Source: a virus
Taxonomy: Duplodnaviria > Heunggongvirae > Uroviricota > Caudoviricetes
DNA: 10,810 nt
Reading direction: 5' to 3' (one strand)
IMG/VR virus record: IMGVR_UViG_2531839446_000011
Coordinates: 1-10,810 of that record
A model generated the notes under the pieces. The model saw only the letters and a list, made by a program, of their open reading frames with translations. It did no database searches and was not told the DNA's origin. The position numbers and the translations under genes were made by a program. This document shows positions 8,755-10,810 of the stretch, piece after piece; within the stretch, counting starts at the first letter, position 1; each line of letters starts with the position of its first letter.

Positions 8755-10810
8755 TCAACGAATACTGATGCCGGAAGCCGCTTTTTTGGTCACAATCACC
8801 GTACAGTCGGTGATATTACCTGCCCACTGATTGCCTTTATGGAAAACCTTAAACTCCAGAGTGACGCTACCACCACCACTAGGCATATCAATAACCGCAC
8901 TGTAACTACCGGGAATGGCCCCTTTAGTTTCTCTGGATGCGATTAATACACCGTTTTTGCGAACTTCAAAACCATAACCCGTGTATCTTGTACCTCCCGG
9001 GTTATTACCACTTCCCGGATAGCTATACGCTATTCCGTTAAAGATAATGGGCGGAATAATGATTTGACGGTCAAAGTTATGATCATCGCTGATGGTGACT
9101 GTAACCGTCCCGTTTGGTGTTTCCGTGTTACCCCACGTACCAGCCTGTTTCGGAAATGATTTGGATACAGCTTTAACGAAGTCACCTCTGACCTGAGTCG
9201 CCTCCAGCATGCCCTTAATCGTACAGTTTTCATTTACCGTGACATTGTTGAGCGTCCCGGCGTTCGCATTCACTCTGCCACTGATATCCGCATTTTTAGC
9301 GGTCAGCTTTCCGTCTGATGTCAGGGAAAATGCCGGTGGATTTCCACCACTGGTAATGGTCGGGGCCGTCAGGCGCTTCAGGAACACGTCGTTCATAAAT
9401 ATCTGATTGCCCTGCGCCACAAACATCGGCGTTTCATTCCCGTTTGCCGGGTCAATAAATGCGATACGGTTAGCGGCAACCAGAAACTGACTCAGTTTGC
9501 CTTCCTCCGTGTCCTCCATGCTGAGGCCAATACCCGCGACATAATGTTTGCCGTCTTTGGTCTGCTCAATTTTGACAGCCCACATGGCATTCCACTTATC
9601 GTTGGCGTCCTTCCACTCTTTCGAAAACTCCTCCAGTCTGCTGGCGTTATCCTCCGTCAGCTCGACTTTTTCCAGCAGTTCCTTGCCGAGATGGGATTCG
9701 GTTATCTGGCCTTTGAAAAATCCAGGTAACCTTCCGCATCATCGCTCGCCCGACCGACGGCCTCCACGAATGCCGATTTGCCAACGGTGTTCACACTGCG
9801 AACATAAAAGTAATAATCATGGCCCGGTTTGATATTGATACTGGCGGCTATCCAGTACAGCCCCGTGCCAAGGTAGCGGGCTGTGGTTTCAACCTGCCTG
9901 ATATCGGTAATCCGCGTTTCCGAGAACCAGAACTCAAACTGTACCGTCGGATCATAAACCGCAAGATGCGGCGTGGCAGTTATCTGAAAATAGCCCGGCG
10001 TCAGCTCAATCTGTGACGGCGCTGCCGGTGCGGCAATCCGGAACGATACCGACGCCGGATCGCCCTGCTGTCCCCGGGCATTTACCGCCCGGACTGTCAG
10101 CCTGTAACGCCCCAACGCCAGCTGCCTGAAGCGGTATGTGGTTTCCGTCGTCCGGGCCGTGCTGACCAGCCGCTCACTGCCGTCATCCGCTGCCACAGTC
10201 AGGCGAAGCATAAAGCTCACACCCTTCACCACCTTCGGCGTGTCCCAGCGCGCCAGCACCTGATATTCCCCGCTGTCTGCAGTGACTTCTGCGATCAGGT
10301 GCTGCACCGCTGGCGGCGTGACACCATTCACCGTGCCGCTCTGGTCGCCGTCAAAGTGCGCCCCGTTATCCACGATGGCCTCTTTCTCCGGCACATGCTG
10401 CACAGCGGTGATGGCATACGTGCCGTCGTCATTCTCACGGATACTCACGCAGCGGAACAGGCGCTGGCGCAGCGTCGGCAGCTTCAGCCCCCATACGCTG
10501 TATTCAGCAACACCGTCAGGAACACGGCTCACTTTTACCTCACGCCGTCGGTGACGGACTGAACCTCCACGCTGACCGGATTGCCACTTCCGTCAACCAG
10601 GCTTATCAGCGTGGTACCGGAGGATGGCAGCGTGACTTCACGGTCGAGCGTCAGCGTCCGGGTCTGGCTGTTCACCGCCAGCACACGACCACCGGTGCTG
10701 ATACCGGCATAGTCATCATCACAGATTTCAATGACATCGCCCGGCACATGGCGAAGCCCTTCTGCGCCCACGCAGAAGTCCACGGTCTGCGTTTCCAGCA
10801 GTTCTGTTTT
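8755..10810 (-). pseudogene. J: tail tip / host specificity protein J, 3' portion (5' end beyond window), split into three frames by two 1-nt deletions
   Basis: Three consecutive - strand ORFs (10535..10783+, 9702..10532, 8755..9585) each match contiguous lambda J segments. Break 1 at about 10533-10540: [11 protein letters not shown], stop, then [14 protein letters not shown], against lambda ...[14 protein letters not shown]. Break 2 at the A5 run 9716-9720: ...GYLDFSKAR stop, while the next frame reads [18 protein letters not shown] ... MWAVKIEQ, against lambda [22 protein letters not shown]. Confidence 0.75.

Follow-up and report, generated by a model that had tools for sequence, protein, structure and literature searches.

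Comparison with related prophages indicates that both frame breaks in the tail gene J of the window (the whole stretch of DNA that was analysed, 10,810 nt) are very probably consensus errors of a 454 draft assembly rather than true mutations of the bacterium. Two independent mutations in the J gene of a decaying prophage are probably not a real biological feature. The sequence-only reading had preferred a decaying prophage and had named sequencing error as the competitor. The competitor is now favoured by the sequencing platform, the private indels, the indel clusters and the pN/pS values, at the expense of decay.

The source of the window was determined by exact-sequence lookup with the two J fragment proteins. 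The window is the whole contig ADUS01000071.1, reversed, of assembly GCA_000188875.2, and the exact matches of each of the two proteins were confined to this contig. For the protein of the 276-aa middle J ORF, one contig was read, and it was listed in two samples. The accession ADUS00000000 covers the draft assembly of E. coli RN587/1, which is a typical EPEC strain with serotype O157:H8; the draft was made from 454 Titanium reads with the Celera assembler (PMC3715677). No other assembly of this strain was found.

The plus strand of the window carries a Rac/CP-933-type exonuclease gene (215–2686), a DUF4224 xis-like gene (2745–2948), and the integrase gene int (2948–4030). The minus strand carries nleF (4814–5383); nleH (5449–6330); an 89-aa tail-fibre C-terminal/chaperone-like gene (tfa-like, 6439–6708); the side tail fibre gene stf, in two ORFs; lom (8086–8685); and J (8755–10810). 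J encodes the central tail fibre/host-specificity protein, and its 3′ two-thirds (685 codons) is present; the 5′ end lies off the contig. The recE-like, xis, int, nleF, nleH, and lom genes had been described as intact, and all of them were intact ORFs in the ORF list, with the exonuclease taken for the recE-like gene.

The contig gene is a lambda-family J (gpJ) by its domain set, its sequence identity, and its position in the tail module. Precomputed Pfam assignments for the two J fragments were Ig_J, Ig_J_second, Phage_Tail_Tip, and Ig_GpJ_C. Over 685 aa, the repaired J was 96.1% identical to phage 434 J, 98.1% to E. coli PEC1011 J, and 81.9% to lambda J. lom and stf lie downstream of J, and I, K, and L lie upstream of J in the relatives.

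Minus-strand three-frame translation and alignment to intact J bore out the earlier statement that J is spread over three frames. The first segment (10535–10810) reads from 10810 to 10538 and ends at an out-of-frame stop, TAA at 10535–10537, which comes into the J frame because a base is missing at 10540. The middle segment, between the two deletions, is the 276-aa ORF at 9702–10532. The C-terminal segment (8755–9719) includes the 434-type receptor-binding domain and runs from about 9719 to the natural stop at 8755; its mechanically called ORF begins at ATG 9585. In blastn alignments with intact J genes, the window J had exactly two 1-nt gaps. With the two bases restored, one open J frame of 685 codons runs to the natural stop, with no nonsense codon.

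Site 1 is at 9716–9720, where A5 (T5 on the coding strand) stands in the window against A6 in all relatives; the loss of this base from the homopolymer is private to the contig. The coding strand reads GATTTTTCAAA in the window and GATTTTTTCAAA in the relatives, and the codons are GAT-TTT-TCA-AAG and GAT-TTT-TTC-AAA, respectively. One relative (L096) matched perfectly over 807+27 nt around this site. Site 2 is at 10540, where the window has a single T and all relatives have TT, again a 1-nt deletion private to the contig. The plus strand is CCTCAC in the window and CCTTCAC in the relatives (coding strand GTGAGG and GTGAAGG), and the codons are GTG-AGG-TAA and GTG-AAG-GTA-AAA. The flanks of site 2 match the relatives perfectly over 228+91 nt. 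Sequencing error at homopolymers had been named earlier as the competing explanation for at least two of the three break sites; site 2 is a dinucleotide and not a long run.

The deletions were looked for in relatives and in complete genomes. The pool of relatives was built from 80 IMG/VR loci and 20 loci with an identical Lom or NleH protein. In the first alignment, neither deletion was found in any of 85 relatives, and the extra base was present at both sites in all 85. After further loci were added, the deletion was found in 0 of 102 relatives at site 2 and in 0 of 98 at site 1. Segments of 141 nt that contained the J sites and the stf cluster were used as queries against 5,426 complete E. 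coli genomes. The two J queries matched at 8,771 and 8,233 places in these genomes, with no 100%-identical match; among the matches listed, every best hit spanned 142 nt, one base longer. For site 2, 398 records from the complete genomes were identical except for the gap. The same prophage with the same NleH allele was present in many assemblies, with an intact 1137-aa J and an stf of 434–437 aa. The best complete-genome matches to J had 96.6% DNA identity, and the closest protein clusters had 96–97% identity and thousands of members.

The closest relatives (L101, L102, and L105) were 98.4% identical over 6.8 kb (window 4023–10810, covering J-lom-stf). Length differences from these three were just six private 1-nt indels, plus one gap at the extreme edge of the alignment. 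A search of Illumina-era assemblies for an identical J allele gave no closer relative than these, so a clean one-difference comparison was available for stf, through a sibling copy in the same assembly, and not for J. Where at least 10 relatives were aligned (6,788 positions), the differences private to the contig were six 1-nt indels versus three substitutions, one of which is inside the stf cluster. Natural variation in coding DNA consists mainly of substitutions, while 454 errors are mainly indels. Five of the six private indels were deletions in A/T runs; written on the plus strand, the undercalls were A6 to A5 and TT to T in J, and TT to T, TT to T, and AAAA to AAA in stf. Homopolymer undercalls in 454 assemblies are biased to A/T runs and lead to artificial frameshifts (PMC3277595). 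The 454 method itself gauges run length from light intensity and is prone to under-calling A/T runs; such errors persist in a contig where supporting reads are few or poor, for example in prophage tail genes that recur within the genome.

Selection on J was examined in comparison with intact relatives. The pN/pS was 0.17 for the repaired J, 0.18 for the intact lom, and 0.24 for the repaired stf. J had one private substitution, a conservative I-to-V change, versus two private indels. No relaxed selection or extra damage was seen in the repaired J by pN/pS, nonsense codons, or private substitutions. Were J a genuine pseudogene, its pN/pS and its one private substitution would require that the two losses happened extremely recently.

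The sequence-only reading had reported one stf frameshift. The stf frame is indeed disrupted, and the disruption is not one event but four 1-nt indels and a private substitution within 30 nt (7691–7720). On the coding strand, the changes are AA to A (7691), AA to A (7702), TTTT to TTT (7704–7706), an insertion of one base (7716), and the private substitution (7720); in all, three bases are lost, one is gained, and one is substituted. The net change of −2 splits stf into ORFs 7671–8021 and 6710–7732. The relatives read GGAGGC-ACTGCGCCGTTTTGAACAGATGGTGGAAGAGG on the coding strand, and the window reads GGGGGCGACTGCGCCGTTT-GA-CAGATGGTGGA-GAGG. No copy of the cluster was found in the 5,426 complete E. 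coli genomes, where 14,830 places matched the query and the best one differed at exactly the six cluster positions. A sibling prophage copy in the same assembly (L089, ADUS01000021.1) was identical across the flanks of the cluster, 66+1003 nt. Five changes in 30 nt with none in the flanking 1,069 nt would not be credible as independent mutation, and the cluster looks like a patch of low-quality consensus or poor reads. At exact repeats that exceed the read length, an assembler would run short of uniquely placed reads. Elsewhere in stf, at 7029–7044, a 9-nt (3-codon) in-frame length polymorphism in collagen-like Gly-X-Y repeats was seen in comparison with strain D1, L088, and others, apparently a natural variant of the repeats.

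Comparison with the J of a sibling prophage in the same genome had been proposed earlier as a check, on the expectation of an intact gene. The sibling J was available for comparison and was also broken, by five private homopolymer indels in 100 nt (3585–3684 of L089), with a net change of −3. These indels are CC to C, CCC to CC, AA to AAA, AA to A, and GG to G. They lie a short way upstream, 100–200 nt from the position that corresponds by homology to the end of the window's contig; this is consistent with assembly trouble at a repeat boundary. The assembly is unreliable in exactly J and stf, since the breaks in stf and in the sibling J are artefact-like clusters of four to five indels.

Drafts of other strains gave an illustration of the same pattern. 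Three loci (L091, L092, and L094, from AIEX01, AIEV01, and AIEY01) were more than 99.8% identical to L088, which comes from an NCTC assembly, and most of their differences from it were private 1-nt indels in homopolymers. Against the NCTC assembly, these near-identical prophages showed 3–10 private 1-nt indels versus 5–10 substitutions. The indels include a cluster of five in 57 nt and a T4-to-T5 change that splits J. The three drafts, which we take to be 454-era IGS assemblies, serve as illustration only. The comparison suggests that artificial J 'pseudogenes' may be present in several drafts of that era.

Some observations run counter to an artefact at the J sites. As a 454 consensus error, the dinucleotide of site 2 would be less typical than the A6 run of site 1, and the two J sites are isolated, outside any cluster. 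No 1-nt indels were seen in the other ~7.7 kb of the contig in comparison with L001 and L102, so that errors would need to be locally concentrated. Low coverage near repeats is a possible cause of the errors at the J sites. A chimeric consensus of two paralogous prophages was rejected for these sites, where the sibling is only 92.8% identical and has full-length runs; simple mixing fails.

The alternative that at least one J deletion is real, with J recently inactivated in RN587/1 in a defective prophage that keeps its nleH/nleF cargo, was considered unlikely. The breaks are present in the deposited sequence, and all disruptions lie in tail genes, with the cargo genes tfa, nleH, and nleF 100% identical to those of relatives. 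J is annotated as 'frameshifted' in two complete genomes with similar prophages, and site 2 lies outside any long homopolymer. EPEC and EHEC commonly carry defective lambdoid prophages whose tail genes are damaged, which gives a reasonable prior for true decay, and real slippage mutations likewise favour homopolymers. Against real deletions stand the 454 origin of the sequence; the absence of either deletion from ~100 relatives and of any identical site match from the complete genomes; the purifying selection on the repaired J; and the artefact-like clusters in stf and the sibling J. A fuller version, in which the deletions are real and the tail genes J and stf were very recently lost through several homopolymer slippages while the T3SS effector cargo stayed perfectly conserved, was judged quite improbable. 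If the deletions were true, the window would show prophage domestication at its very beginning.

Recoding would allow the breaks to be real and yet bypassed, with some full-length J made through transcriptional slippage or, at site 1, through a −1 shift of the ribosome on T TTT T. Such a shift on GAT TTT T would restore the wild-type D-F-F-K peptide at this site. Both sites would need to be bypassed, and site 2 (GTG AGG TAA) is without a slippery motif; programmed frameshifting was rejected on this ground. A five-T run is too short for efficient slippage, and J is not known to use a programmed frameshift. The sequence was in frame in all 85 relatives first examined, none of which had such an arrangement. 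Recoding was therefore regarded as extremely improbable. The action of a diversity-generating retroelement on the tail-fibre genes was also rejected: the lesions are indels and not adenine substitutions, and the ORF list of the window contains no reverse transcriptase.

The C-terminal ~120 aa of J had been described as unlike lambda J. The divergence was confirmed, and its extent was larger, roughly the last 185 aa (28–72% identity). In 50-aa bins, the last 185 aa were 72%, 42%, 28%, and 34% identical to lambda J, and 92%, 88%, 100%, and 100% identical to phage 434 J. LamB specificity is not expected because the last 135 aa of J are only 28–42% identical to lambda. Replacement of lambda J by the 434 gene redirected binding to OmpC, and the C-terminus of gpJ sets host specificity (PMC11101478). 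The C-terminal domain of the window J is, by sequence, of the known phage-434 type and is predicted to be OmpC-specific rather than LamB-specific. The earlier suggestion of a different receptor specificity is thereby supported, the domain being 434-like with its last 85 aa identical to phage 434 J. Close relatives of this 434-type J allele are common in E. coli.

The junction between the integrase and the cargo was also studied. A tRNA-Ser gene fragment of ~60–70 nt lies right after the integrase stop (4030), at ~4031–4100, and is 94% identical to the tRNA-Ser adjoining mtfA in strain EcPF5. Covariance models found no intact tRNA gene in the window, only weak tRNA-like hits. The tRNA-Ser fragment at window 4023–4100 is the putative att core. 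Most carriers, strain D1 among them, have the host genes yodB and zinT after nleF and lack an integrase there. An integrase adjoins the nleF-side junction both in the window and in strain 2013C-3264, and in L102, the integrase and DUF4224 genes are ~3 kb beyond nleF. The order int-att-nleF...J is a phage-map (attP-like) order, which implies tandem prophages at the site or an excised circle. The exonuclease-xis-int block may belong to a neighbouring or tandem prophage. Retention of recombination genes had been part of the earlier case for decay. The genes are intact, and the retention argument is weakened: the exonuclease-xis-int block joins nleF...J through an att-type junction with a tRNA-Ser fragment, so its intact genes need not belong to the prophage of J.

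Other features were observed around this junction. Near the 3′ end of int, at 3932–3957, the window has a 13-nt direct duplication (GAAAATATTCCAA...) that is absent from strain 2013C-3264 (L001). The window version of int is the intact 360-aa form, and int of 2013C-3264 is annotated as frameshifted. Between att and nleF, at 4307–4399, there is a 93-nt piece ~91% identical to chromosomal ykgJ; in strain D1, its RefSeq annotation is a truncated gene of the YkgJ family. This piece is why all E. coli genomes 'match' the window.

The level of conservation was different along the window. The cargo region at 4250–7500 (an 89-aa ORF, nleF, nleH, the tfa-like gene, and the C-terminal half of stf) differed from L101, L102, and L105 at one position in ~3.25 kb, versus 1.5–2.5% of positions in J, lom, and the N-terminal part of stf. 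By this comparison, the window is a mosaic produced by recombination, and its effector module is very conserved.

In drafts of the 454 era, a frameshifted prophage gene should be taken as a sign of prophage decay only when the reads support it. This caution extends to any estimate of the inducibility of the present phage with its nleH/nleF cargo. If J is intact, RN587/1 may carry a potentially functional 434-type (OmpC-targeting) lambdoid phage able to mobilise effector genes, which would be ordinary biology for EPEC.

The window can be compared with several known systems. It shares with the homopolymer errors of Roche 454 assemblies single-base indels that are mostly A/T undercalls and produce artificial frameshifts (PMC3277595), and the platform is confirmed here; the difference is that one J site is in a run of just 2 bases. 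With the LamB-binding gpJ of lambda, the window J has in common the Pfam domains, 90–98% identity over the first 500 of 685 residues, and lom and stf downstream, but it differs in the last 135 aa. Compared with phage 434, the last 85 aa of J are the same, the 50-aa bins of the last 185 aa are 88–100% identical, and the gene order is the same (J-lom-stf-89-aa tfa-T3SS effector cargo-att-int). The deposited J of the window is in three frames, unlike that of phage 434, and the cargo is nleH/nleF versus nleB′, nleC, and nleH′ remnants in 434. Defective lambdoid prophages of EHEC/EPEC, known from the O157 Sakai literature, retain nle effectors and have disrupted tail genes. The window is consistent with them in its disrupted tail genes and intact nle effector genes. 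Those prophages are finished sequence, with typically IS insertions, deletions, and older mutations, while the breaks in the window are private 1-nt indels with an error-like profile.
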